A stretch of 64,000 bases of DNA. It comes from Thermodesulfobacteriota bacterium. Its GTDB lineage: Bacteria > Desulfobacterota > QYQD01. How positions within the stretch are numbered: the first letter of the stretch is position 1; each line of letters begins with the position of its first letter. The stretch lies in assembly GCA_031082315.1 (NCBI GenBank), contig JAVHLC010000011.1, forward strand, positions 35,117-99,116, read 5' to 3'. Under the pieces are notes generated by a model. The model was given only the letters and a program-made list of their open reading frames with translations, was not told the DNA's origin and did not search any database. The position numbers were made by a program, and so were the translations under genes. This document shows, in pieces, positions 4,017 to 62,303 of the stretch.

Positions 4017-4296
4017 ACCTTACTTAGCTCCCATCCAAAAACCATGCCCATCCCATTGTAGGAGCACCTTCCAGGTGCGAACAAATGCCCGTCGCAGCAG
4101 GATGCTGCTCCTACGGCGGCAGGCAGGCCTAATACGGCAAGGGGGATTTTGGGATTTCCGGATGAAAACCGCTTAATTTTCACTTTCCAAAATCTCTTTG
4201 TTCATGTCATAATCAACGGCGATGTCTTAAAGTTAATCTGAATAAGGGTCGAAAAGACTTAGGAGATCGTCTTTTGATGCACAAGGAGGCGCCTTT

Positions 4297-5892
4297 ATGG
4301 CCAAGAAAAGCAGTGAAATCAAAAACGTGTGGATGGTTACACGTGAATACGATGGACTGGCGGGCGCCGGGGGGGTAAAGGACGTATGCAAGCAACTCTC
4401 CCATGCCCTGGCCCGTGCCGGGATTAAGATTACGGTGGTCATGCCGCTTTACGGGATGATGAATAAGGAGAGATTAAATCTGAAGCCGACCTCTTATTCC
4501 TTCAACGTAAGAATGGATTATACCGGTGAAGAGCGGCAGGAAGAGGTGTGTATCTGGAACCTGACGCAGGGCAAGGTCCGGATTTTATTTGTGGATAGCG
4601 CCCGTTTCAGCGAAAAGAAAAGCGTTTATACTTATACTGCCGAGGAAGAGGCGCAGGATCCCAGCCACAAACAGGGCGCAGGCCATTATGACTATTTTGC
4701 CATGAATGTCTTGCTGCAAAAAGCAGCCCTCGAACTGATGATCTATATGGATGAAAGGCCTGAAATCATCCACTGTCAGGACGGGCATACGGCTATTATG
4801 CCGGCCATAATCCGCGAAGTCGATGGATACCGGGCCTATTTTGCAGGGACGGGCGCCCTGGTTACGGTGCATAATGCGGGGGTCGGTTATCACCAAGAGG
4901 TGGGCGACCTGTCTTTTGCCAGGGCTATTACCGGGTTGCCGGGATATGTCATTGAACATTCCTTGCTTCATAATGCCTTTGATCCTTTTATTGCGGCAGC
5001 GCGCTATGCAGTTATAAATACGGTGAGCGAAAACTATGCGCGGGAGCTTCAGGAAACGGAGGCAGATCGTCTTACCGGCTGGCTGGGCCATAGCTTGAAG
5101 TCCAGAGGAATAGTCCTTGAGGGTGTAACGAATGGCATTGACCCGGAGGATTTTGATCCGGAAAAACCGGAGAAGCTGGGTATTCCGGCGGCCTTCAGCC
5201 CATTAAAGGACGATTTTCAGGGCAAAGAAATCTGCAAGAAGACCCTTATCGAGGATATAAACAGGCGTAAGTTTGAGAAAGTAAACGCCATCGGCCGGAT
5301 TGATTATGCGGCAGGCAAACCCCTTTTGACTATGGTGGGCCGGCTGACAGAACAAAAAGGCGTGGACATCCTGGTTCGGGCCTTACAGATGCTGATGCCA
5401 AAAGACAAAGAGTTTCAGGCGCTGATCCTGGGTAGCGGCTCCAGGCATATAGAGAACTCTCTGGCCACCTTGGCCGGCCTGTCGGAGAATAGGGGGCGTA
5501 TGGCGGTTCTCTTTGGTTATGATCCGGTATTGGCCAACCAGATTTATGCGGCAGGGGACTTTTTTGTCATCCCTTCACAATATGAACCCTGTGGACTTAC
5601 CGATTTTATGGCCCAGTTAATGGGTAACGTCCCCATTGTCCATCTGACCGGCGGTCTGGTTAAGGTTATCGACGGGCAGACCGGCTTTGGTTATTCAGAT
5701 CATAACCCGGAAGCCCTGGTTCAAACTATCAGAAAGGCCCTGGCTATTTATCGGGACACCCCGGCAGTTTTACGGCAAATACAGCGTAAGGCCGTGGAAA
5801 CTATAGATAGCCATTATACCTGGGACAGAGTACTGGGTCGCTATAAAAGTCTTTATAAAAAAGCACAGAATATGAGTAAATTAATTGGATAA
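4297..5892 (+). CDS. glgA: Glycogen/starch synthase (ADP-glucose type)
   Basis: 531 aa. N-terminal EYDGLAGAGGVKDV (KxGGL-like motif) and GT1 C-terminal domain (PSQYEPCGLTDF). Confidence 0.9.
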   Translation: MAKKSSEIKNVWMVTREYDGLAGAGGVKDVCKQLSHALARAGIKITVVMPLYGMMNKERLNLKPTSYSFNVRMDYTGEERQEEVCIWNLTQGKVRILFVDSARFSEKKSVYTYTAEEEAQDPSHKQGAGHYDYFAMNVLLQKAALELMIYMDERPEIIHCQDGHTAIMPAIIREVDGYRAYFAGTGALVTVHNAGVGYHQEVGDLSFARAITGLPGYVIEHSLLHNAFDPFIAAARYAVINTVSENYARELQETEADRLTGWLGHSLKSRGIVLEGVTNGIDPEDFDPEKPEKLGIPAAFSPLKDDFQGKEICKKTLIEDINRRKFEKVNAIGRIDYAAGKPLLTMVGRLTEQKGVDILVRALQMLMPKDKEFQALILGSGSRHIENSLATLAGLSENRGRMAVLFGYDPVLANQIYAAGDFFVIPSQYEPCGLTDFMAQLMGNVPIVHLTGGLVKVIDGQTGFGYSDHNPEALVQTIRKALAIYRDTPAVLRQIQRKAVETIDSHYTWDRVLGRYKSLYKKAQNMSKLIG

Positions 5893-6000
5893 CTTTAAGT
5901 AAAATATTAATAGATATTGGGCGTTCAAGGTTCGATTTGTTCGAGTCGTTCGAACATGTCGGACCTTTCAAACGTTTTTTGACCCCCGACCCTCGACTTC

Positions 6001-6789
6001 TTAAGGACTGCTTTTTATAATATCTTTTATAGCCTGCATGCCCTGTTGGACTTCCTTACTGTCCGGGTTAATATCCAGGGCCTTTTGATATGTATCCAGG
6101 GACTTTTCCATCCAGTTTCCTTCCCGATAACTTTCGGCAGCCAGGCAGTAACCTCTTTCCTTCTGACCGGAAAACATCTCCTCAAAAAGCCGGGGTATGG
6201 AATTTATCCCCCAGATCCGGTCAAATTCGGGCTCATTTTCTATTAATAGACGAAGCACAAGGTGGTTATCCGGGTATTTCAGCAAGACTTTATGCAATTG
6301 TCCGGCTGCCCTTAAAAAGAGGCGATTCAGATGGCCCATCGCCAAATTGACCTCTGCGGTTGTTTTTTCAAAAAGTTCCAAATAATCATCCATGCCTTGA
6401 TTTTCTGTAAATTTCTTATGTTGATAGATCATTTTTTCATAAGCCGGTTTATAATGTTGCAATAAGTAAATATTTTCTTTGAGCTTCATGCCCTCGTGGA
6501 AGATAGAGCCAACGAGCCAATCCAGAAGGGCGCACTCGACGTCCATTTGCTCCTCATCGCCCCACACCGCATGACAGAGGTCTTTGAACTGCCACAGGGG
6601 CCCCTTCCGCACCTCGGTGCCGATCCAGTAGTCCATATTTTTAAAGGACATCTCTGCGCTCTCATTATATGTCTTGTATAGTTGTTCAAAAAAATTTAAG
6701 GTTTTTAGAAAGTCACGTATGGCATTTCGGACAAAGATGTCTTTATGTTCTTCAAACCAGTTATTGCGGGCCGACTTCTTATTGGTCAC
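6001..6789 (-). CDS. Hypothetical protein with C-terminal TPR-like repeat
   Basis: 262-aa ORF whose start overlaps the radical SAM gene stop by 4 nt. No recognisable catalytic motif. Confidence 0.5.
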   Translation of the reverse strand: MTNKKSARNNWFEEHKDIFVRNAIRDFLKTLNFFEQLYKTYNESAEMSFKNMDYWIGTEVRKGPLWQFKDLCHAVWGDEEQMDVECALLDWLVGSIFHEGMKLKENIYLLQHYKPAYEKMIYQHKKFTENQGMDDYLELFEKTTAEVNLAMGHLNRLFLRAAGQLHKVLLKYPDNHLVLRLLIENEPEFDRIWGINSIPRLFEEMFSGQKERGYCLAAESYREGNWMEKSLDTYQKALDINPDSKEVQQGMQAIKDIIKSSP

Positions 6790-8594
6790 TCCCTGAGTCC
6801 TCCTTCTCTGACCGCCAGGCTAAGATATTGATCATTTTCTTTCAACATAATACGTTTTTGTACTAATTCATTAAAAAACTTTTGTAAAGACTCCAGCGAG
6901 CAGCCAGGAAATCCCTCTTTTATATCCTTGAGTGATTTTATGGTCGTACAGTAGAGATATACATTGCGGGAGGGACCGTGGAGTCTATGGATTTGAACAC
7001 TACCATCTGATCTTATCTGTCGTATGCTGAGAAACCTGCCCCCATCCCGGTAAGAGAGAAGGGGTTGCGACGGATATTGGTTTCGCAGAAGAAAATAGTC
7101 TTTCCGCCACATTTCCACCTTTTTTGCTACCGGTCTCCATAAGGTATATTGTCGGGATCTATCGCCCCGATGAGCCTGCTGTATTAGTATTAGTCGTGCA
7201 AAGAGTTCCTTTGACAAAAACGATTTATACAGGTGGTGATTGCCTGTCCGTTTAACCCCGAATTCTTTGGCAGTACAAAAGACCGGACTGCCGTAGCCCA
7301 ACCAGAAAGACGCCATTTTTAATGGATAAAAAGGCCATACGAAATCGAGGGCGTCCAGTGTTTCTTTCACTTCAGCCGGTGAGCTGCCAGGAAACATGGT
7401 GATCAGGTTGCCGGATTGAATAATGCCCAGCTCTTCGCAGTGCCTCATGGTCTCTATATTCTGGAGGGCTGTGGTTCCTTTGCCCATTCGTTTTAGCAGA
7501 GAAGAACTTAAGGCCTCGATGCCGATCTGGACCGTTTTCAGCCCGCCTTCGCGCATTAAGGCCAGGGCTTGGGCGGATTGTCCGGCGCGCAGCTCGGCGA
7601 AGATGCCAAGGTCTTTTTCCAATGTGGTGAGGGCGGTAAAAAGCTCCGGCCCCTGATGAGGCGGCAGCGCATTGTCGGTGAAGGCCAGATCAATGGACGG
7701 ATAGCGATCGGTCAGGTCCTTGATCTCCCCTACCATCTGAGGTACAGATTTCTTTCTATAGCTGTGCCATTGGAGGTTAAGGTTACAAAAGCGGCATTTC
7801 CGCCACCAGCAGCCGCGTGAAAACTCTACCGGCAGGACCGGCAGGAATGGAATCCGGGGGGATATATCCTGTAGGAGGTTAAAATAATCCCCATAATCCG
7901 GCGGCGGAAGTGAGCTTAAGGCGTTGATCTCATCATAACTCCCCCCTGATACCATGCCCTGGCTGTTACGGTAAAAGACCCCGGGTCCTGGTTTATCGAC
8001 CTCCCCCTTAAGAAGACGTACAATGGATAAGAGGGGTTTTTCGCCTTCACCGGAGACGACAAAATCTATCTCCGGCAAGCTGGAGAGAATGGCCCGTCCC
8101 ATCTCGCCCGAACAGCTTGAACCGCCGGCTACAATGGTTATCTCTGGAAATCTCGCCTTCAGGGTACGTATGGCGTAGAGTGAAGATGTAAGCTGATTAA
8201 GGCAGATAGAGAAGCCTATTAGGTTGAACTGCCTCCAATCCCTCGACCGTATAAAAGCTTCATGGTGATCGCTGAGTTTAGACTTAAGAGCGGAGAGATC
8301 AAAATGAAGTTTATATTTTTTAGACCTTTTTTGTTTGTTTATTAAGGAATGAATCGATGTATTTTTTTCCGGAAAGAGGAGTGAGGCATAGATAGCCTCG
8401 GTAATCCAGCTATGTTTTGAAATCTCGTGGTAGAGTTCAAAACCGATCTGGGCGGCGACTTCCAGATAAATCGGGTAAGTGGAGATATCGAGGGCATCAT
8501 CCTGCGATGCAAGGTAGGATTTAAGCGCACCGAGTTGTATGGAGGGCCGGTTAAATAGCGGCCAGGGCATGGAAATTAGGGCTATCCGGAACAT
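6786..8594 (-). CDS. B12-binding-domain radical SAM protein (RiPP-maturase-like)
   Basis: N-terminal B12-binding-like region (GFSICLNQL...VAGGSSCSG). Cluster motif is SRGCWWRKCRFCNLN. C-terminal ~90 aa looks like a winged-helix / RRE-type extension. Confidence 0.8.
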   Translation of the reverse strand: MFRIALISMPWPLFNRPSIQLGALKSYLASQDDALDISTYPIYLEVAAQIGFELYHEISKHSWITEAIYASLLFPEKNTSIHSLINKQKRSKKYKLHFDLSALKSKLSDHHEAFIRSRDWRQFNLIGFSICLNQLTSSLYAIRTLKARFPEITIVAGGSSCSGEMGRAILSSLPEIDFVVSGEGEKPLLSIVRLLKGEVDKPGPGVFYRNSQGMVSGGSYDEINALSSLPPPDYGDYFNLLQDISPRIPFLPVLPVEFSRGCWWRKCRFCNLNLQWHSYRKKSVPQMVGEIKDLTDRYPSIDLAFTDNALPPHQGPELFTALTTLEKDLGIFAELRAGQSAQALALMREGGLKTVQIGIEALSSSLLKRMGKGTTALQNIETMRHCEELGIIQSGNLITMFPGSSPAEVKETLDALDFVWPFYPLKMASFWLGYGSPVFCTAKEFGVKRTGNHHLYKSFLSKELFARLILIQQAHRGDRSRQYTLWRPVAKKVEMWRKDYFLLRNQYPSQPLLSYRDGGRFLSIRQIRSDGSVQIHRLHGPSRNVYLYCTTIKSLKDIKEGFPGCSLESLQKFFNELVQKRIMLKENDQYLSLAVREGGLRE

Positions 8595-9130
8595 TTCCTG
8601 TCAGCATGAACATGCATAGCGAGCGCATTCCCCGTTGCTTGCCATCCAGGTCCGACACTGGCGGGCAGCGGGGTTAGCGAGCGAATACGATGCATTTTAC
8701 CTTGCATACGGAGATTCCCCGCAGCTTGCTGCGGGGGGGCTTCAACATGGCTTAACGATAATGAGACCTTCCGGGCGGGGGCCTTTTTGTCCGGCTGTTT
8801 ATAATGCATCCTGTAATCTTCAATGGCCAGCATGAGGCCAAAGGCGATGGCTAAGACCAGAAATATCTTGATGATCCGTGGCCAGGATGGCCTTGTCTTT
8901 TCGATCCAGACAAGGAGTCTAACCAGAAGCCGGGTAAAAATCGCAGCCAGGCCTGAAGACCAGAAAATCTTTATTCCGGTTTCGCACATAGAGCGGCCAA
9001 CGTCTCCGGGGTAATAACGCAGGGCGATGAAAAACCAGCCTAAGGCGCAAACGGCCACAATGATCTTATCCCGTGTAGTCCAGATAGGGTTAAGAGACTC
9101 AGATTTTGTTGCCACTATCCCGTCCTTCAA
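8582..9130 (-). CDS. Small membrane protein; its 3' third is read through repeat R1
   Basis: 3-4 hydrophobic helices in the first ~110 aa. The last ~50 codons (SHVEAPPQQAAGNLRMQGKMHRIRS...) are encoded by the R1 repeat, so the native C-terminus is uncertain. Confidence 0.4.
   Translation of the reverse strand: MKDGIVATKSESLNPIWTTRDKIIVAVCALGWFFIALRYYPGDVGRSMCETGIKIFWSSGLAAIFTRLLVRLLVWIEKTRPSWPRIIKIFLVLAIAFGLMLAIEDYRMHYKQPDKKAPARKVSLSLSHVEAPPQQAAGNLRMQGKMHRIRSLTPLPASVGPGWQATGNALAMHVHADRKCSG
8607..8745 (+). repeat. Repeat family R1, long form (copy a)
   Basis: TGAACATGCATAGCGAGCG...GCATACGGAGATTCCCC-[hairpin]-GCTTCAA. About 90% identical to 41231-41376. Confidence 0.85.
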
Positions 9131-9830: not shown

Positions 9831-9863
9831 ATATAGTCGATAGTGAATAGTCGATGGTTGATA

Positions 9864-10046
9864 GCTGAAGGCTGAAAGCTCAAGGCTGAAAGCCTTAAAA
9901 CCAGAGAAACCAAAGAAAACAGAGAAACTACGGACAACGGACCACGGACAATACATACTTACCGGTAAAAAGACTTTGTTACGAAATCGTCAAGGTTGAG
10001 CCTTTAGCCTTGAGCCTTGAGCTTTCAGCCTTCAGCTTTTAGCTTT
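9864..10046. repeat. Long inverted repeat built from GCTGAAGG / GCTGAAAG word repeats
   Basis: Left arm GCTGAAGGCTGAAAGCTCAAGGCT is the perfect reverse complement of 24 nt in the right arm. Spacer is about 110 nt. Confidence 0.8.
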
Positions 10047-10062
10047 TAGCCTCTGGCTCCCC

Positions 10063-27646: not shown

Positions 27647-27778
27647 CCCGAACAAATCAATCCAGCCGGGCTGTGCTCTCGCGGAATAAAATCGTTCCCT
27701 CGCGCGCTGATTCGCGCGTCGGGAACAATCCGCTCGAGCAGACAGCCCAAGGGCCGCAGCTCAGATGGGCCGTTGGCT
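27647..27778 (+). other. attC-type site (long, 132 nt)
   Basis: Bounded by CCCGAAC and GTTGGCT. Arms GGGCTGTGCTCTCGCGGAAT and AATCCGCTCGAGCAGACAGCCC pair. Central hairpin GTTCCCTCGCGCG...CGCGCGTCGGGAAC. CCCGAAC is the exact reverse complement of the cassette start GTTCGGG. Confidence 0.7.
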
Positions 27779-27791
27779 GAGAGGGAAAAAG

Positions 27792-27884
27792 ATGGAACAG
27801 TATATCGGTTTGCTGATTTTCCTTGGACTTCTGGTCAGTTGCACATCCCCCGTGAACAAAAGGCGATCGGAGAAAGCAAGATGA
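27792..27884 (+). CDS. Possible 30-aa mini-lipoprotein ORF
   Basis: MEQYIGLLIFLGLLVSCTSPVNKRRSEKAR, with a lipobox-like LVSC. RBS GAGGG lies 6 nt upstream. ATGA overlap with the next ORF. Confidence 0.3.
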   Translation: MEQYIGLLIFLGLLVSCTSPVNKRRSEKAR

Positions 27885-28204
27885 ACGTACTTCAGATTCG
27901 TTGGCAACGTCTCGTGGACGAACGGGGCCAAACATGTGATCGCTGTGGCGCAACCGAAACAGCGATAGAGGATGGGTTCCAAAAGCTAAGGCGTTCCCTG
28001 AAGGAACTGGACATAGACGTCGTTCTCGAGAAAACAGCTCTCAATCCTTCTACGTTTTCCAAGGATCCGCTCCAGTCAAATCGTATCTGGATTGCCGGAA
28101 AGCCGATCGAGCAGTGGCTCTCGGCCACCACTGGCCAGAGCCGATGTTGCTCCACATGCGGAGATTCGGAATGCAGAACTGTCACGGTTGATGGCAATAC
28201 CTAA
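27881..28204 (+). CDS. DUF2703-like small Cys protein
   Basis: MNVLQIRWQRLVDERGQTCDRCGATE...CCSTCGDSECRT. Start chosen at MNVLQ rather than the longer tracked ORF. Confidence 0.65.
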   Translation: MNVLQIRWQRLVDERGQTCDRCGATETAIEDGFQKLRRSLKELDIDVVLEKTALNPSTFSKDPLQSNRIWIAGKPIEQWLSATTGQSRCCSTCGDSECRTVTVDGNT

Positions 28205-28210
28205 GGACTG

Positions 28211-28744
28211 GCGGGACGTTCATGCAGAACGTGCTTGACGAATTGTGAATAAGCAGGACATCCTCTTGAGGCGGACGGCAGTTACTCTATCTCCCGAACC
28301 CCGGAGCTTCGTCACGTTGTGCTGACTTGCCCGGAGACTGGGCCTGGTATGCCGTTTACTCGCCACGTCCTGTGGCTCGCCCTTCGGGCCAGCAAAGCTG
28401 TTCAAGATCGTTCATCCTGACGATTTTGTCTGTTCGTCGGCTCATAGCTTTGCGCTCCGGGTTACCGCTCCCTACGGTCGCTCTCGCCGTTGGCTCGTGG
28501 TCTCCGCTGCGCTTCGAACCCTTCGACGGTCTCTCACGATTCCGCCCTTGCCTTCGGCTGGTACTTCTGCTAACGTATCACTAACTAGGCAGGGTTCACC
28601 CTGTTAAATTCCCCCCAGGGAACCCTATTTAACAGGGTGAACGTACAGGGGGGACTTACACCCCTTAAGCTCACGCCCATGCCGGGCGTACACAACTGCG
28701 TTCACGCGACCTCGTGACCTCGGCGCGTGACCCACATGTTATTA
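28211..28744 (+). other. attC-type site B, interrupted by an intron-like element
   Basis: Without 28218-28693 it reads GCGGGAC-AACTGC-GTTCACGCG-ACCTCGTGACCTCGG-CGCGTGA-CCCACAT-GTTATTA. Confidence 0.6.
28218..28693 (-). mobile_element. ORF-less group II (class C-like) intron-like RNA, copy B
   Basis: About 90% identical to copy A with the same ends. Lacks one ~23-nt hairpin. Shows at least one compensatory U-A to C-G change in a small stem. Confidence 0.6.
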
Positions 28745-33940: not shown

Positions 33941-34894
33941 TTGAATCGAATACTTAACATCTTCAATCGCCTGTTTGTCCTCTGGATTGTCCTGGCCGGC
34001 GTAGCCGCCTTCTATTTTCCGGCCGTCTTCATCCCATTGAAGAAACACATGGAGCTATTCTTTGCCATAACCATGTTCGGCATCGGAATGGTCTTAAAAC
34101 CCATAGACTTCGTGAATATCTTTAAAAACATCAAGGTAGTGGTTATTGGCACGGCTGCTCAATTTACGATCATGCCGCTATCGGCTTTTTTCGTTGCCAG
34201 GCTTTTTTCATTATCAAAAGAGTTTTCCCTGGGCCTGATTTTGACCGGATCGGCGCCGGGGGCCATGGCCAGTAACGTACTGAGCTATCTCGCCGGTGCC
34301 GATGTCGCCTATTCGGTATCGTTGACCACTGTATCCACCCTCCTAGCGCCGGTCCTTACCCCACTTTTAACCCTGCTCTTAGCCCATACCATACTGGAAA
34401 TCCCCTTTTGGGAGATGTTGGTCAGCGTTTTCAACATGGTGGTTATTCCACTTTTTTTGGGCATAACCGTAAAAGGCATTTTCTCTGGCAAAGTGGAGTA
34501 CCTGTCCAAAGTCTTCCCCGCAATTTCCACCACATTCATAGCCTTTATCTGCGCGCTGGTCGTAGCCCTTAACAAAGAATACCTTATGAAAGTAAACACC
34601 TGGATTTTTATGGCGGCGATTTTGTTGAATCTCTTGGGGCTGTTCTTGGGCTACATGACAGGAAAGACATTCGGTTTTGATATCCTGAAAAAACGGGCCT
34701 TATCCATTGAAGTCGGCATGCAAAATGCCGGTCTGGGCAGCGTGCTGGCCTTAAAACATTTTAATGAGAAAGTGGCCCTGCCCGCGGTCGTTTTTGTTTT
34801 TATCTGCATATTCACCGCCTCCTTTCTGGTGCAAATCTGGTCCAATACGAAAAAGCCAACTATTTCAGTCCCTTTATCTTTTGGACGTTTTTGA
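33941..34894 (+). CDS. Bile acid:sodium symporter (BASS) family transporter
   Basis: 317 aa, about 9-10 TM helices. GSAPGAMASNV and EVGMQNAGLG motifs. Confidence 0.8.
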   Translation: MNRILNIFNRLFVLWIVLAGVAAFYFPAVFIPLKKHMELFFAITMFGIGMVLKPIDFVNIFKNIKVVVIGTAAQFTIMPLSAFFVARLFSLSKEFSLGLILTGSAPGAMASNVLSYLAGADVAYSVSLTTVSTLLAPVLTPLLTLLLAHTILEIPFWEMLVSVFNMVVIPLFLGITVKGIFSGKVEYLSKVFPAISTTFIAFICALVVALNKEYLMKVNTWIFMAAILLNLLGLFLGYMTGKTFGFDILKKRALSIEVGMQNAGLGSVLALKHFNEKVALPAVVFVFICIFTASFLVQIWSNTKKPTISVPLSFGRF

Positions 34895-41230: not shown

Positions 41231-41376
41231 TGAACATGCATAGCGAGCGCATTCCCCGCTGCTTGCCATCCAGGTCCGACCCTGGCGGGCGGCGGGGTTA
41301 GCGAGCGAATACTATGCTTTTTACCTTACATACGGAGATTCCCTGTCCGCCGCAGGCGAACTGCGGGGAGCTTCAA
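41231..41376 (+). repeat. Repeat family R1, long form (copy c)
   Basis: Same architecture as 8607-8745. The terminal hairpin sequence differs (CCGCAG-GCGAA-CTGCGG). Confidence 0.85.
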
Positions 41377-41552: not shown

Positions 41553-41720
41553 TTGCCATCCGGCCACGGGCCGAAAGCCCCGGTTTTCCGGATGGAACGG
41601 TCAGCAGTCGGCTATCAGCGTTCAGCTTAAGATGATGTTGTTTGTCTTATTTTTTTGCTGACGGCTGAAAGCTGATCGCTGAGGGCTTTCATCCGGAAAC
41701 GGTAGTTTCCGGATGAAAAC
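41553..41720. repeat. Repeat family R3: ~170-bp nested palindromic element
   Basis: TTTTCCGGATGGA...CAGCAGTCGGCTATCAGCGTTCAGC...GCTGACGGCTGAAAGCTGATCGCTG...CCGGAAACGGTAGTTTCCGGATGAAAAC. Related copies at 56546 and 62181. Confidence 0.8.
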
Positions 41721-41746
41721 TAACTCAAGCGGAGGATTGGCTAAAG

Positions 41747-44644: not shown

Positions 44645-44737
44645 AGGTAACACCGCGTAGCCGGGACATTTACTAAACCCCCGCCATCTGATCGAAATCT
44701 CTTGATTTTCCCCCTTAGCTATGTTTATTTTTTGCCT

Positions 44738-45112
44738 ATGATTCAGTACGAATTGGCCGAGGACATTGGTGCATCAATAAAAGGCATTATTCATAAACTA
44801 CAAATGACCCATGTGGATGAATCCAGGCTGGTTTGTATAAGGAGCAAATACTCTAACAGCAAGAGGGTAATTGCCCGCTGCCACGGTCTTTCCAGAATCA
44901 TGCAATTAGCCCTCAACCAGAGGCCTCATTATGTTATCGAGGTTATTTCTGAAAGGTTTGATAAGCTCAGCAAAGAAGAGCAGATTAAGGTTCTTATCCA
45001 CGAACTCATGCATATTCCTCATTCCTTTGGAGGCGGGTTCAGAGTCCACAAGCCGTATGTGACTCAGAAGAAGGTTGAGAGGATGTACAGAAAGTTTGTA
45101 CGGGTCGGATAA
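44738..45112 (+). CDS. Small putative metallopeptidase (HExxH; COG4900/SprT-like)
   Basis: HELMHIPHSFGGGF motif. Start moved to MIQYEL (ATG) from a TTG. Confidence 0.55.
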   Translation: MIQYELAEDIGASIKGIIHKLQMTHVDESRLVCIRSKYSNSKRVIARCHGLSRIMQLALNQRPHYVIEVISERFDKLSKEEQIKVLIHELMHIPHSFGGGFRVHKPYVTQKKVERMYRKFVRVG

Positions 45113-45113
45113 G

Positions 45114-45174
45114 CTTGCCATGCATACGGAGATTCCCCGTCCGTCCTCCGCCTGCGGCGGACGGGAAGCTTCAA
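45114..45174 (+). repeat. Repeat family R1, 3' part only (copy d)
   Basis: GCATACGGAGATTCCCC-[CCCGTCCG...CGGACGGG hairpin]-AAGCTTCAA. Abuts the stop codon of the metallopeptidase gene. Confidence 0.75.
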
Positions 45175-45256
45175 ATTTTCCACTGTGCCGCCGCCAAATA
45201 ATAAATTGCCATAATTACGTCGAGTCGACATAACATCGATAATTACAATAAAAAGC

Positions 45257-45400
45257 AGACCTCCGGATTTTATGCTATCGTCTTATGTAATTGATATTTA
45301 ATTGCATTTCATTTTATTGTACTGTTTGCCAAATTGTAGTATCATCGCTTTTATCTGCGAGTTTTGATGAAAAAATCGAGTCGATATAATATATAATGTT
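45257..45400 (+). promoter_or_regulatory. Conserved array leader, copy 2
   Basis: See copy 1. Similarity ends at GTT (45398-45400), the first bases of cassette heptamer GTTAAGT. Confidence 0.6.
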
Positions 45401-49318: not shown

Positions 49319-49524
49319 GCGTGGTACTCATTCGAAAAAAAACAACCGTTTCCGGCTGGGAGTTCTCCGCAATCAGCAAGTAGCTGTTGGAGATAGAATC
49401 CAGAATTCAGGAGTCAGAATACAAAAGAGCTGAAAGCTGAGCGCTGATGGCTGACTGCCGACTAGATTATAATAAAACAAAGATTGTTTCAAGGGAATGT
49501 TTGCCGTATAATACGTCTCTGGAT

Positions 49525-56545: not shown

Positions 56546-56692
56546 GTTTTCATCCGGAAAACCAAGTTTTCCGGATGGAGCAGTCAGCACTCAGCTATCA
56601 GCATTCAGCTTAACATAATGTTTGTCCTACTCTTTTGCTGACAGCTGATGGCTGAAAGCGTGAAGCCGGAAACAGTAGTTTCCGGATGAAAA
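56546..56692. repeat. Repeat family R3 copy
   Basis: GTTTTCATCCGGAAAACC...CAGCACTCAGCTATCAGCATTCAGC...GCTGACAGCTGATGGCTGAAAGCG...CCGGAAACAGTAGTTTCCGGATGAAAAC. Confidence 0.8.
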
Positions 56693-56727
56693 CTGGATTG
56701 ATTTTTAGCAGGGCAGGACGGGACGAA

Positions 56728-58511: not shown

Positions 58512-59252
58512 TCACGATATTTTTTTAAAGAACTTTTTTCGCCTGATTCCTGCCAGACCAACCAAACCGGAGCCGACGAGAAGCATCGTAGCGGGTTCAG
58601 GAACCGGAGGATTTCCACCACCTGTATCTCCATCTCCGATCCAGCCACTTCCATCAGTGTCTATGCCTGGGGAATTTGGATCATCAATGCCCTGGACATG
58701 GGCTGCTGATCTATAGCTACCGTTGCCGCCTCCTGGAGCACTATAAAAATTGAAGGATGAAGCGGTAAGTCCTGGGATACCTGAAATTACGTAAACCGAA
58801 TAATCATCCTCACCGAATCGAGTAGATACGCTTGCTGTATCAAAAGAGAATTTGATATCAAAATACCCGTCTCCATCTGCCTTAAAGGCGTTACTTCCGG
58901 TCAAAAACGAGGTTGCCTGGACGCTAGAGTAATATGTATCGTAAGTAAAGGTTAAGGAAGTGACAGCAAGATTGGGATCTAGATTGAGATACCAATCACT
59001 TACAAATTCTGATCCAGTCAGATTCGTAGCCTCCATCTTCAATACAACCGTACCATCAGTGTTATCTATAAAAGTCGCAGTGAGCCATGGAGTGAATGGG
59101 GAAGAAGGAGCCTGTGCGCCGGAGAACTCGGTATCAAGTCCAATCGTCAATGGCAGCGCCAGGACAGGTATCGGAGATAAAGCTAAACTCACCAGCGCAA
59201 CGGGAACCATCCATACGAATATAAAAAAACTTTTTAAAGTTTTCATCCTCAT
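58512..59252 (-). CDS. PEP-CTERM sorting-domain protein
   Basis: Signal peptide. C-terminal VPEPATMLLVGSGLVGLAGIRRKK. Confidence 0.75.
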   Translation of the reverse strand: MRMKTLKSFFIFVWMVPVALVSLALSPIPVLALPLTIGLDTEFSGAQAPSSPFTPWLTATFIDNTDGTVVLKMEATNLTGSEFVSDWYLNLDPNLAVTSLTFTYDTYYSSVQATSFLTGSNAFKADGDGYFDIKFSFDTASVSTRFGEDDYSVYVISGIPGLTASSFNFYSAPGGGNGSYRSAAHVQGIDDPNSPGIDTDGSGWIGDGDTGGGNPPVPEPATMLLVGSGLVGLAGIRRKKFFKKIS

Positions 59253-60530: not shown

Positions 60531-61292
60531 CTATTTCTTTTTAGAAAATTTTTTTCTGCCGAAAGCGGCCAAGCCTATCAGCCCGGAGCCCAAAAGGGCC
60601 ATGGTAGCCGGTTCAGGAACCGGAGTGCCACCTCCCGTAAACCTTTCATAGACTACATCGTTGGAACAATTCACGGTCCAGCTGATAATGAAGTCATCTG
60701 AACCAAGGTATATTGGGTAATCTGAGAAGTCAAAAAAAGAGGTGACTTCAGTGCCTGTTGCCCCGGGGATTTGCCAACCTGAAAAATGGGTGGTTTGTGC
60801 AGTAGTGGAGGTGCCTACATTAATCGCAATTGGGTGACTGTCCCTGATATAGTAACCAGACCAAGTACCTGTATTGTCATTACCCGAAAGTATATAGGAT
60901 GAGTCATTATTACCCTTTATCGAGGAAAGATTAATAGAGAAAAGACCGTAATCGCCTGCTGTTTTTTGCCCATTTGTCTTCACCAGATAGTTCCAGGTAT
61001 TATCCGCTCCAATATCAATAAAAAGGTCACTCGGTTTCAACACATTCCAAATACTCAGATAATTATCTGCCTTATAATTAAAGCAAATGTTTTCAAGATA
61101 ACCATTACTTGATATAGATACCTTACCTCCGGTAAAACTTGGTATTCCAATGGTGTCCTTATAGTCATCAGCCGTTCCATTGTTCCATGTAGGCCAATAG
61201 TAAGAAGTATCGCTAAAGGGAATCTCTATCGCAACAGCCTGTGACGAGACAAAAATAATCAATAAAACAAGCAAAGCCAACCGCTTTTTCAT
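60531..61292 (-). CDS. PEP-CTERM sorting-domain protein
   Basis: Start at MKKRLALLVLL with RBS AGGAGA. C-terminal VPEPATMALLGSGLIGLAAFGRKK. Confidence 0.75.
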   Translation of the reverse strand: MKKRLALLVLLIIFVSSQAVAIEIPFSDTSYYWPTWNNGTADDYKDTIGIPSFTGGKVSISSNGYLENICFNYKADNYLSIWNVLKPSDLFIDIGADNTWNYLVKTNGQKTAGDYGLFSINLSSIKGNNDSSYILSGNDNTGTWSGYYIRDSHPIAINVGTSTTAQTTHFSGWQIPGATGTEVTSFFDFSDYPIYLGSDDFIISWTVNCSNDVVYERFTGGGTPVPEPATMALLGSGLIGLAAFGRKKFSKKK

Positions 61293-61378
61293 ACTGTTCT
61301 CCTGAGATGTAATGCAATGCCCACATGCCATATGGCAAGGGTAATTGTTACTAGCACTTTTTGCTCAAACAAAAAATA

Positions 61379-61588: not shown

Positions 61589-62173
61589 TCAATTTTCTAC
61601 AATTACATAGGGTGCTATTTCTTTTAGTTTCTTTTCCCCGATCCCCTCGACATTCATAAGATCAGCAATGTCTTTGTACGGTCCATTTTGTTCGCGGAAG
61701 ATAATGATGCGCCGGGCAAGTTGCGGCCCGATGCCGGGGATTAGTTCCAGATTCTGTTCCGTGGCCGTGTTTAAAGGCATTGATATGTCCAGGAGAAGGC
61801 GTTCGGGATTGGTCATGGGGATAATTTTAATCTCATTTGTCCCCTCCGGTTTAGGGGTAACCAGAAGCTTTGTACCGGTAGGCACTTTCTGTGACAGGAG
61901 GACAGGGGAGTGCGAGGGATTTCGTTTCAACCCGCCGGCCCTTTCAATTACTTCTTTGACTGATGGTTGTAAGTAGAAAGTGTAGAGGCCGGGGGATCGT
62001 ACTCCACCCATGACTCGGACGTATTTTAGACCCTGGGTGGGAAATGACTCTGTAGGTGAGGCTGACCCGGGAGTTCTGCCATAAGAGAGGTAAAGACAGA
62101 CACCGAGCAGGACGACGGCTAGTAAGAGGACGGCCTGTTGCTCGTATCTGGTCATGATTATTGGGGGTTTCAT
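61589..62173 (-). CDS. comEA: ComEA-like DNA-binding protein (SLBB plus tandem helix-hairpin-helix)
   Basis: N-terminal TM helix. C-terminal LELIPGIGPQLARRII...VEGIGEKKLKEI. Confidence 0.8.
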   Translation of the reverse strand: MKPPIIMTRYEQQAVLLLAVVLLGVCLYLSYGRTPGSASPTESFPTQGLKYVRVMGGVRSPGLYTFYLQPSVKEVIERAGGLKRNPSHSPVLLSQKVPTGTKLLVTPKPEGTNEIKIIPMTNPERLLLDISMPLNTATEQNLELIPGIGPQLARRIIIFREQNGPYKDIADLMNVEGIGEKKLKEIAPYVIVEN

Positions 62174-62180
62174 TATATGG

Positions 62181-62300
62181 CGGTCAGCTATCAGCGCTCA
62201 GCGTTCAGCTTAAGATGCTGGTTGTCTTGATTTTTTGCTGAGAGCTGACGGCTGATGGCTGAAAGCGTGAATCCGGAAACGGTAGTTTCCGGATGAACAC
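62181..62300. repeat. Repeat family R3 copy (lacks left outer arm)
   Basis: GGTCAGCTATCAGCGCTCAGCGTTCAGC...GCTGAGAGCTGACGGCTGATGGCTGAAAGCG...CCGGAAACGGTAGTTTCCGGATGAACAC. Confidence 0.8.
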
Positions 62301-62303
62301 TAA

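Follow-up and report, generated by a model that had tools for sequence, protein, structure and literature searches.

The window, by which we mean the whole 64-kb stretch of DNA analysed here, carries four copies of a short repeat, R1, all on the + strand, alignable over a common frame and present at the coordinates given for them in an earlier note: copy a at 8607-8745, copy b at 24464-24551, copy c at 41231-41376 and copy d at 45114-45174. The 19-mer TGAACATGCATAGCGAGCG occurs three times in the window against 0.01 occurrences expected by chance, and the 16-mer GCATACGGAGATTCCC occurs four times at three or fewer mismatches against 0.72 expected. Copy a sits within an ORF on the minus strand (8582-9130), where it forms a 135-nt in-frame insertion nine codons before the stop. 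It had been credited with extending this ORF by about 50 codons and with making it overlap the start of a radical SAM gene; the extension is real, at 45 codons, but the overlap is independent of the repeat, because the ORF ends at the same TAG after removal of copy a in silico. Copy c lies between divergent EF-G and PilT-like genes, and copy d starts 6 nt after the TAA of the ORF at 44702-45112, adjoining a stop codon as had been noticed before.

Copies b and d precede a common 150-nt promoter-like cassette with a sigma-70-like element (TTGATG-16-TATAAT, 24691-24718), and the same cassette follows an R1 copy at another locus, L076. These downstream segments had been described as integron-type leaders; we found nothing integron-like there, and they are better called a promoter-like cassette. 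To the left of copy b stands a duplicated piece from the 3' end of the ORF at 33941-34894. Compared with L076, where a full short form of the repeat stands before the homologous right flank, copy d has a replaced left side; thus both copies lie at rearrangement points. An integron attC site was rejected as an identity for R1: the ends of the repeat are CATGC... and ...GCTTCAA (TTGAAGC... on the other strand), neither of which fits the GTTRRRY core, and no integrase was found among the window ORFs scanned. A group II intron 3' end, suggested by the domain V-like minus-strand sequence CCGTATGC, was rejected because folding gives no domain V (Rfam intron matches do occur elsewhere in the window, at 26477-26558 and 28276-28357), and a CRISPR or tandem array was rejected for want of periodicity.

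The long form reads, in order, the flanking TGAA, CATGCATAGCGAGCG-CATT, hairpin 1, TTAGCGAGCG AATACGATGCATTTTACCTTGCATACGGA-GATT, hairpin 2 and AG-CT-TCAA. It has two similar hairpins on the same strand, CATT-CCCCGCTGCTTGCAGCGGGG and GATT-CCCCGCAGCTTGCTGCGGGG, and its left and right ends are homologous in the same orientation (TGCATA...GAG...ATT-CCCCGC[T/A]GCTTGC[A/T]GCGGGG). In copy a the element proper (8611-8745, + strand, 135 nt) is preceded by TGAA at 8607-8610, which empty-site comparisons place outside the element, as flanking target and left cleavage site (TAM). There follow a 19-nt left spacer, CATGCATAGCGAGCGCATT (8611-8629), with the spacing of IS608 (PMC3201880), whose last four nucleotides are the putative left guide CATT (8626-8629), and the left subterminal hairpin in a 44-nt extended variant (8630-8673; 15-bp stem, -13.2 kcal/mol as DNA). 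The putative right guide GATT (8713-8716), complementary to TCAA under the IS608 rule, stands directly 5' of the foot of the right subterminal hairpin CCCCGCAG-CTTG-CTGCGGGG (8717-8736), which is identical to the family consensus, and the right tail GGGCTTCAA (8737-8745; consensus AGCTTCAA) ends in the right cleavage motif TCAA. The AG of the tail is mutated in copy a and likewise in its ortholog at locus L082.

Copy c is also a long form (element proper 41235-41376, + strand, 142 nt), with target TGAA at 41231-41234, guide CATT at 41250-41253, a 44-nt left hairpin at 41254-41297, guide GATT at 41337-41340, a 28-nt right hairpin at 41341-41368 and the tail AGCTTCAA at 41369-41376. Copy b is a short form of 84 nt (element proper 24468-24551, + strand) without the left hairpin; it has target TGAA at 24464-24467, guide GATT at 24512-24515, a right hairpin of 28 nt with a 3-nt bulge at 24516-24543 and the tail AGCTTCAA at 24544-24551. 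Long and short forms differ by one module, as had been proposed, and the module that copy b lacks corresponds exactly to the stretch bounded by two TAGCGAGCG repeats. Copy d (45119-45174, + strand) is a 56-nt remnant without TGAA on its left, in which CATGCATA, the element's first 8 nt, is joined directly to CGGAGATT of the right-hand 48 nt; its guide GATT (45131-45134), right hairpin (45135-45166, 32 nt) and tail AGCTTCAA (45167-45174) are all in place.

The boundaries of R1 were set by comparing filled with empty sites. We joined the flanks of each copy and sought uninterrupted matches, which gave nine usable comparisons; these set either one species against another or, where R1 had entered an unrelated repeat, one copy of that repeat against another. 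Eight of them agree: without R1 the site reads TGAA followed directly by the flank, and with R1 it reads TGAA, then the element from CATGCATAGCG to GGGGAGCTTCAA, then the flank, with nothing duplicated or lost; in the ninth the junction is off by 1-2 nt. Since the empty sites contain TGAA, the TGAA that headed the conserved frame of the earlier note is flanking target and not part of the element. The look for target-site signatures which that note had recommended thus proved decisive, showing exact insertion 3' of TGAA without duplication. The same preference is seen across the family: in the 104 complete copies among the matches listed from the census described below, the base before GAAC (-1) is T in 101, the GAA is invariant, position -2 is T in 63 and the first base after the element (+1) is T in 87, with base composition near even further out from the junctions. 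TGAA stands to the left of 98 of these 104 copies and TTGAA to the left of 59. The target of R1 is therefore (T)TGAA^T, the caret marking the point of insertion, and the element ends in TTCAA; it has no real terminal inverted repeat, the 5-bp match of TTGAA with TTCAA being one of target with element end.

This layout is that of IS608 (ISHp608) of Helicobacter pylori, a member of the IS200/IS605 family whose insertion 3' of TTAC neither adds nor removes DNA (PMC3201880, PMC5934647). In IS608, 19 nt separate the left cleavage site from the left hairpin foot 3' of it, the right spacing is 10 nt, and the right hairpin is followed by AG, four nucleotides and TCAA (PMC3201880). The sites of IS608 are read not by protein but by the four bases 5' of the hairpin feet (AAAG and GAAT), through the left pairs T-4:A+17 and T-3:A+16 and the right pairs T-4:A-34 and C-3:G-35; by this rule, guide positions 1 and 2 pair with cleavage-site positions -3 and -4, respectively, while A-2 stays unpaired and A-10 and G-9, just 3' of the right hairpin, form base triples (PMC3201880, PMC5934647). 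R1 likewise inserts 3' of a specific tetranucleotide without duplication, has 19 nt between left junction and left hairpin foot (20 nt in two subfamilies), and has a right end made of guide, hairpin, AG, a short linker and TCAA. Its guides are complementary to the cleavage tetranucleotide at -4, -3 and -1, with A at -2: under the IS608 rule, TGAA with CATT gives T:A, G:C, an unpaired A and A:T on the left, and TCAA with GATT gives T:A, C:G, an unpaired A and A:T on the right. The A:T pair between -1 and guide position 4 appears to fit the rule as we read it from the published sequences. The two ends compensate each other, the cleavage site having G on the left and C on the right where the guides have C and G, respectively. 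Because the register was set independently by the empty sites and the hairpin feet, complementarity at three positions at both ends would be expected by chance only about once in 4,000 trials.

The likeness to IS608 is drawn from the layout. Unlike IS608, R1 has neither tnpA nor tnpB; its target is (T)TGAA in place of TTAC, its guides are CATT and GATT in place of AAAG and GAAT, its right linker is 2 nt long in place of 4 and its right spacing 8 nt in place of 10. As a rule its hairpins have a perfect stem, a CTTG loop and a distal part of variable length, and the common one, a perfect 8-bp stem, is without the extrahelical base used by IS608 TnpA.

The abundance and range of R1 were taken from one pattern scan of species-representative genomes, with CATACGGAGATTCC-N15-45-GCTTCAA. 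This census returned at least 120 loci with at least 133 matches, three of which are chance matches in unrelated taxa, and leaves at least 130 copies in at least 11 assemblies, mainly Thermodesulfobacteriota MAGs. The search pattern fixes GATT and TCAA, so that their conservation among the retrieved copies is partly by construction; the features of the left end (TGAA, the 19-nt spacing and CATT) lie outside the pattern and are not built in. Nine of the assemblies among the matches listed are labelled Thermodesulfobacteriota, Desulfobulbaceae, Desulfovibrionales or Deltaproteobacteria/Proteobacteria, and the other two are single contigs in MAGs labelled Dehalococcoidales and Pseudomonadota. With at least 37 copies in one MAG, at least 30 in another and four in the 64 kb of the window, R1 is very abundant in a group of uncultured sulfate-reducer-like bacteria. 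Copies confined to the window, the outcome that the earlier note had named as counting against its family, are thus not what was found. The MAG SpSt-1152 (DSAQ01) is collinear with window positions 4286-8777 at 94% identity and carries the ortholog of copy a (L082); the window is therefore derived from a close relative of this organism. Within a genome, copies of the common form, 113 nt long, average 91-95% identity. Among the matches listed, 59 parsed elements comprise left end, hairpin module, core and right end and 23 are without the hairpin module; none has two hairpin modules and none exceeds about 190 nt.

BLAST of plasmid records added a relative, about 75% identical, in three replicons of Ca. 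Manganitrophus (Nitrospirota). TGAA, the 19-nt spacing, both guides (CATT and GATT) and AGCTTCAA are conserved in it. Sequence divergence is seen in its spacer, its middle region and its left hairpin, whose changed arms still pair. The presence of R1 in both Thermodesulfobacteriota and Nitrospirota points to horizontal spread. A scan of IMG/VR viral contigs found one divergent copy on one contig.

The hairpins had first attracted attention by differing in every copy while always pairing, from which selection on structure had been proposed. For the four copies of the window the description holds, all their terminal hairpins being different and all folding as single-stranded DNA (z = -2.0 to -2.9; -3.7 for the whole R1 consensus). 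Family-wide it does not: among the matches listed, about half of the right hairpins are the same 20-nt CCCCGCAGCTTGCTGCGGGG or single-base variants of it, and the others fall into discrete classes of 27-28, 32, 35-36 and 44 nt, which are extended or bulged hairpins on the common CCCC/GGGG foot. A single transposase might have difficulty in tolerating such variability in the distal part. In 47 distinct 20-nt hairpins, 92% of the cells pair, but two-sided changes are found at only one of the eight base pairs (A-T 18, T-A 16, G-C 4), the remaining seven showing one-sided changes or mismatches only; compensatory substitution is thus confined to one base pair, and there is no broad covariation. Of 115 hairpins, 104 retain CTTG as the loop and four have the inverted CAAG, and on the top strand G.T mismatches (39) exceed A.C (18) by about 2:1. 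At three loci (L080, L088 and L099) one hairpin arm has been rewritten as the perfect complement of the other, as template switching within palindromes would bring about at the DNA level. The hairpins are indeed maintained as hairpins, but this fits the subterminal DNA hairpins of a transposon better than an RNA: the data fit a protein that recognises the foot, guide and tail on a single DNA strand and accepts variation in the distal part, and they do not call for an RNA under selection.

We read R1 as a family of gene-less, non-autonomous elements of the IS200/IS605 type, similar to PATEs (palindrome-associated transposable elements), and give this reading a probability of about 0.75. Several observations weigh against it: no transposase gene was found in the sequence searched, the short forms occur at many sites, the common hairpin has no extrahelical base, the distal part of the hairpin is highly variable, the right spacing is 8 nt and the strand bias described below is weak. 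What had appeared as a variable hairpin is then most likely a DNA hairpin gripped by a single-strand transposase, and not a new RNA. In the mechanism we envisage, a Y1 HUH transposase (TnpA) encoded elsewhere would bind both subterminal hairpins on the top (+) strand of single-stranded DNA, and the four nucleotides 5' of each foot would serve as DNA guides, CATT with the flanking TGAA and GATT with the terminal TCAA, positioning cleavage. The top strand would be excised as a circle, the donor would be resealed exactly, and the circle would re-insert 3' of another (T)TGAA; such movement may be going on in present-day genomes. The right-end hairpin would be transposase-binding, its foot and flanks fixed and its distal part free to lengthen.

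Gene-less IS200/IS605 derivatives that are mobilised in trans, as PATEs are, form a described class (PMC10055086). R1 resembles PATEs and the ISGst mini-elements of Geobacillus stearothermophilus in being gene-less, in having IS200/IS605-type ends and many copies, and in its presumed mobilisation in trans (PMC10055086); it differs from PATEs in its hosts and its sequences, and in that neither parent IS nor transposase was found for it. Many PATEs are said to encode omega-RNA, for which R1, at 110-143 nt, is short. ISDra2 of Deinococcus radiodurans also has a target beginning with TTGA, TTGAT^G (PMC5934647) compared with TTGAA^T for R1; this likeness is drawn from the target, and ISDra2, unlike R1, is autonomous (tnpA and tnpB).

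The search for a transposase and an autonomous parent covered the window, the R1 loci and related records. Pfam scanning of 20 window ORFs found no Y1 transposase or TnpB, and a scan of about 870 kb of R1 loci for the HUH...Y motif found no Y1 gene. Searches by tblastn, with an IS200 TnpA sequence as the query, found no TnpA in the same ~870 kb or in 187 kb of Ca. Manganitrophus plasmids, whose annotation lists only an IS3-family transposase and an unspecified partner 'transposase'. In the 870 kb of loci, no left end is separated from its right end by more than about 200 nt, and a right-left junction, as expected of a tandem or a circle, is absent from the R1 loci examined. JGI metagenomes were scanned for a right end preceded by foreign sequence, and the one match was an ordinary R1, not a parent. 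Nothing relevant was found in the literature on TTGAA with IS605 or TnpB, or on the sequence of the element itself.

The closest alternative in enzymology would make R1 a REP/REPIN-like extragenic palindrome, spread by a domesticated RAYT (a Y1 relative) without being a transposon with true left and right ends. The enzyme class is the same as in our preferred reading, and the main difference is the mode by which copies spread. In its favour, R1 consists of GC-rich palindromes between genes, numbering hundreds per genome, that carry a short conserved motif 5' of the foot and have no linked transposase, and one R1 locus (L016) does hold an inverted pair of right-end-like arms. That pair is the only one, however; the two hairpins of R1 are otherwise direct and not inverted, and its copies are units with distinct left and right ends, inserted precisely 3' of TGAA, whose geometry reproduces an IS608-type element. 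The guides are CATT and GATT and not GTAG, the motif typical of REPs, and no Y1 gene was seen near R1 copies in the ~870 kb of loci. We consider this alternative unlikely. REP/BIME sequences with RAYT, and the BOX elements of Streptococcus pneumoniae, are abundant intergenic GC-rich palindromes of modular build with an optional middle module, and R1 is like them in being intergenic, GC-rich, palindromic and modular, with an optional middle module; it is unlike them in its defined ends, its sequence-specific insertion site, its direct hairpins and the lack of multi-module arrays among the copies seen. Another alternative is a conventional MITE, mobilised by a DDE transposase, in which TTGAA/TTCAA would be terminal inverted repeats of 5 bp and AA a 2-bp duplication. 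It draws on the fact that TTGAA on the left and TTCAA on the right are reverse complements, and on the AA at the junction, which is ambiguous in the empty-site alignments, so that a 2-bp AA duplication is compatible with the sequence alone. The left TTGAA is already present in the empty sites, however, and therefore belongs to the target and not to the element, and no duplicated flank was seen. Beyond those 5 nt the ends are without inverted similarity, 5 bp is very short for a transposase-binding inverted repeat, and the interior holds two direct hairpins with guide-like tetranucleotides. Of the readings considered, we find the MITE the least probable by our estimate, and very improbable.

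The alternative nearest to the earlier note is that R1 is a structured RNA module (an sRNA, a terminator or attenuator, or an mRNA-stabilising 3' hairpin) selected at the RNA level. The strength of the hairpins, with the consensus z-score of -3.7 obtained as DNA, the conserved loop of CUUG type, the excess of G.T over A.C mismatches on one strand and the position of copy d beside a stop codon are all in keeping with it, and several copies lie just after gene ends, at a median distance of 54.5 nt where the genes on both sides run with the element. Among the matches listed, 101 of 104 copies lie between approximate ORF calls, but with no preference for one gene orientation: 32 copies have both neighbouring genes in their own direction and 21 have both in the opposite one, in addition to 18 between divergent and 13 between convergent genes. 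No T-run follows the hairpin, the tail being AGCTTCAA, and no terminator-like site was called at copy b; nor was there an Rfam match at the gathering threshold or at E <= 10. The sRNA, terminator and attenuator roles raised before thus find no footing in gene orientation, U-tract or Rfam, and an RNA role accounts for neither the TGAA target, nor the precise empty sites, nor the complementarity of guides and cleavage sites. We regard selection at the RNA level as having a slim chance of being the explanation of R1, and individual copies may have a secondary RNA effect.

Copies of R1 have also changed after insertion. About 30% of copies are short forms without the left hairpin, and these are nevertheless found at many different sites. 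Thirteen pairs of copies from different genomes share both flanks, and six of the 13 differ in form: long as opposed to short, another right hairpin class, or another middle subtype. Rare mutations common to copy a and its L082 ortholog (AG replaced by GGG in the tail, and CGTTGC in a hairpin arm) mark them as the same insertion, yet the left hairpin is the 20-nt form in the ortholog and 44 nt long in copy a, the difference being a 24-nt loop block; R1 elements therefore change in place. The short form probably arose, to judge from its sequence, by deletion between the two TAGCGAGCG repeats around the hairpin. For copy d we rejected a 5'-truncated retroelement copy, as the first 8 nt of the element are kept; this retention points to an internal deletion between the TGAA^CATGCATA and TTGCATA repeats, by which copy d and L090, a remnant of the same type, were probably both produced. 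The short forms and the copy-d remnant are probably immobile. Re-insertion after precise excision, or gene conversion, could contribute to the change in place.

A more unusual possibility, to which we give only a slight chance, is that transcripts running from the right end of R1 into the flank act as omega-RNA-like guides for a TnpB or IscB encoded elsewhere, or that the hairpins are lengthened stepwise by an undescribed templated process acting on hairpins to which transposase is bound. If the guide version were true, the nuclease would cut the resealed empty site (TTGAA plus flank) and the element would be restored or replaced, which would explain the different R1 variants at the same site across species in six of the 13 cross-genome pairs.

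Read as an IS200/IS605-type derivative, R1 ceases to be an unexplained repeat and can be annotated, with exact boundaries, as a mobile element abundant in a poorly studied lineage. Elements of this kind break assemblies, lengthen ORFs spuriously, as copy a does, and, as at copies b and d, mark points of recombination. With its TTGAA target and TTCAA terminus, the family also supplies a naturally occurring set of left and right ends for studies of guide-directed single-strand transposition, useful too to anyone seeking the cognate TnpA or TnpB. The element is unsurprising in principle and opens no new kind of biology.

The single-strand mechanism of ISDra2 is tied to the lagging-strand template (PMC5027513). 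For R1, 78 of 130 copies have their top strand on whichever strand is locally richer in G (binomial P = 0.036, with noisy 8-kb GC skew and with orthologs counted repeatedly), and genes are co-oriented for 56% of coding bases in the same analysis. The bias is in the direction predicted for the lagging-strand template, and the signal is weak. Within the window, where GC skew on the + strand is positive, all four R1 copies are on the + strand, and the minus strand holds the majority of TTGAA sites (98 of 164).

Comparison of loci carrying R1, the gene-less repeat that we read as a non-autonomous IS200/IS605-type element, revealed that in six of the 13 cross-genome locus pairs (which include L015/L063, L030/L088, L007/L010 and L077/L103) the R1 variant at a shared genomic site differs from one species to the other. 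The variants differed in being long or short (with or without the left hairpin), in right hairpin class and in middle subtype. Such differences could arise by re-insertion after precise excision, by gene conversion or by deletion in place.

In the window, R1 copy b adjoins on its left an 81-nt segment (24380-24460) that duplicates, at 89% identity, the 3' end of ORF 33941-34894 (34778-34858). Because this homology stops 3 nt short of the TGAA target, copy b marks a rearrangement junction. A 125-150-nt leader is shared, at 88-97% identity, by window positions 24578-24728 and 45251-45400, L076 3310-3460 and L124 ~100-160, and it recurs beside R1 copies in other genomes. It carries a sigma-70-like promoter (TTGATG-16-TATAAT at window 24691-24718), and the genes downstream are small and unrelated: one a trypsin-like ORF of 239 aa, the other an ORF of 115 aa without a family. 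The leader looks like a portable promoter module rather than an integron feature.

At L110 2337-3600, in a MAG labelled Pseudomonadota, an insertion sequence bearing helix-turn-helix and integrase-core-like ORFs interrupts an R1 copy, of which the right 60 nt alone are still adjacent. The sole REPIN-like arrangement that we saw was at L016 ~5110-5196, where two right-end-like arms TTGAAGCTCCCCGCGGC ... GCCGCAGGGAGCTTCAA are inverted about a 50-nt spacer. A divergent R1 relative, present as a single copy on an IMG/VR contig (L125 7402-7520), has the left guide AAAT, not CATT, and the flank TTTAGAA.

A second dispersed repeat family, in the window, consists of GCTGAnn heptamer runs followed by the palindrome CATCCGGAAACGGTAGTTTCCGGATG (41571-41723, 56554-56696 and 62154-62303), with heptamer arrays at 9859-9893, 9996-10052 and 49429-49454; such runs also flank R1 in other genomes (L015, L023 and L097). 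A third family, AT-rich and found in related genomes, has the motifs GAAATCCGAA / TTCGGATTTCG (L116 1619-1905, L029 2647-2867, L038 267-435 and L109 507-669). R1 has repeatedly inserted into this family, at an internal TTTGAAT, and several of the empty sites (R1-free counterparts of filled sites) come from family members that R1 does not occupy.

Two further duplications lie in the window. A segment of ~500 nt occurs twice, 1.8 kb apart (26417-26919 and 28216-28695; 92-96% identity), and on the minus strand both copies match the group II intron D1-D4 model RF02001, at 28276-28357 above the threshold of 32 bits (35.1 bits) and at 26477-26558 with 30.5 bits. No reverse-transcriptase ORF was seen with these two segments; between them are a DUF2703 gene (27773-28204) and an ORF (26988-27644) with no Pfam match. 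The other duplication is a 93-nt stretch (58517-58609 and 60533-60625; 72% identity) found at the ends of neighbouring minus-strand ORFs 58512-59252 and 60531-61331; the two ORFs probably are paralogues that have a terminal segment in common.
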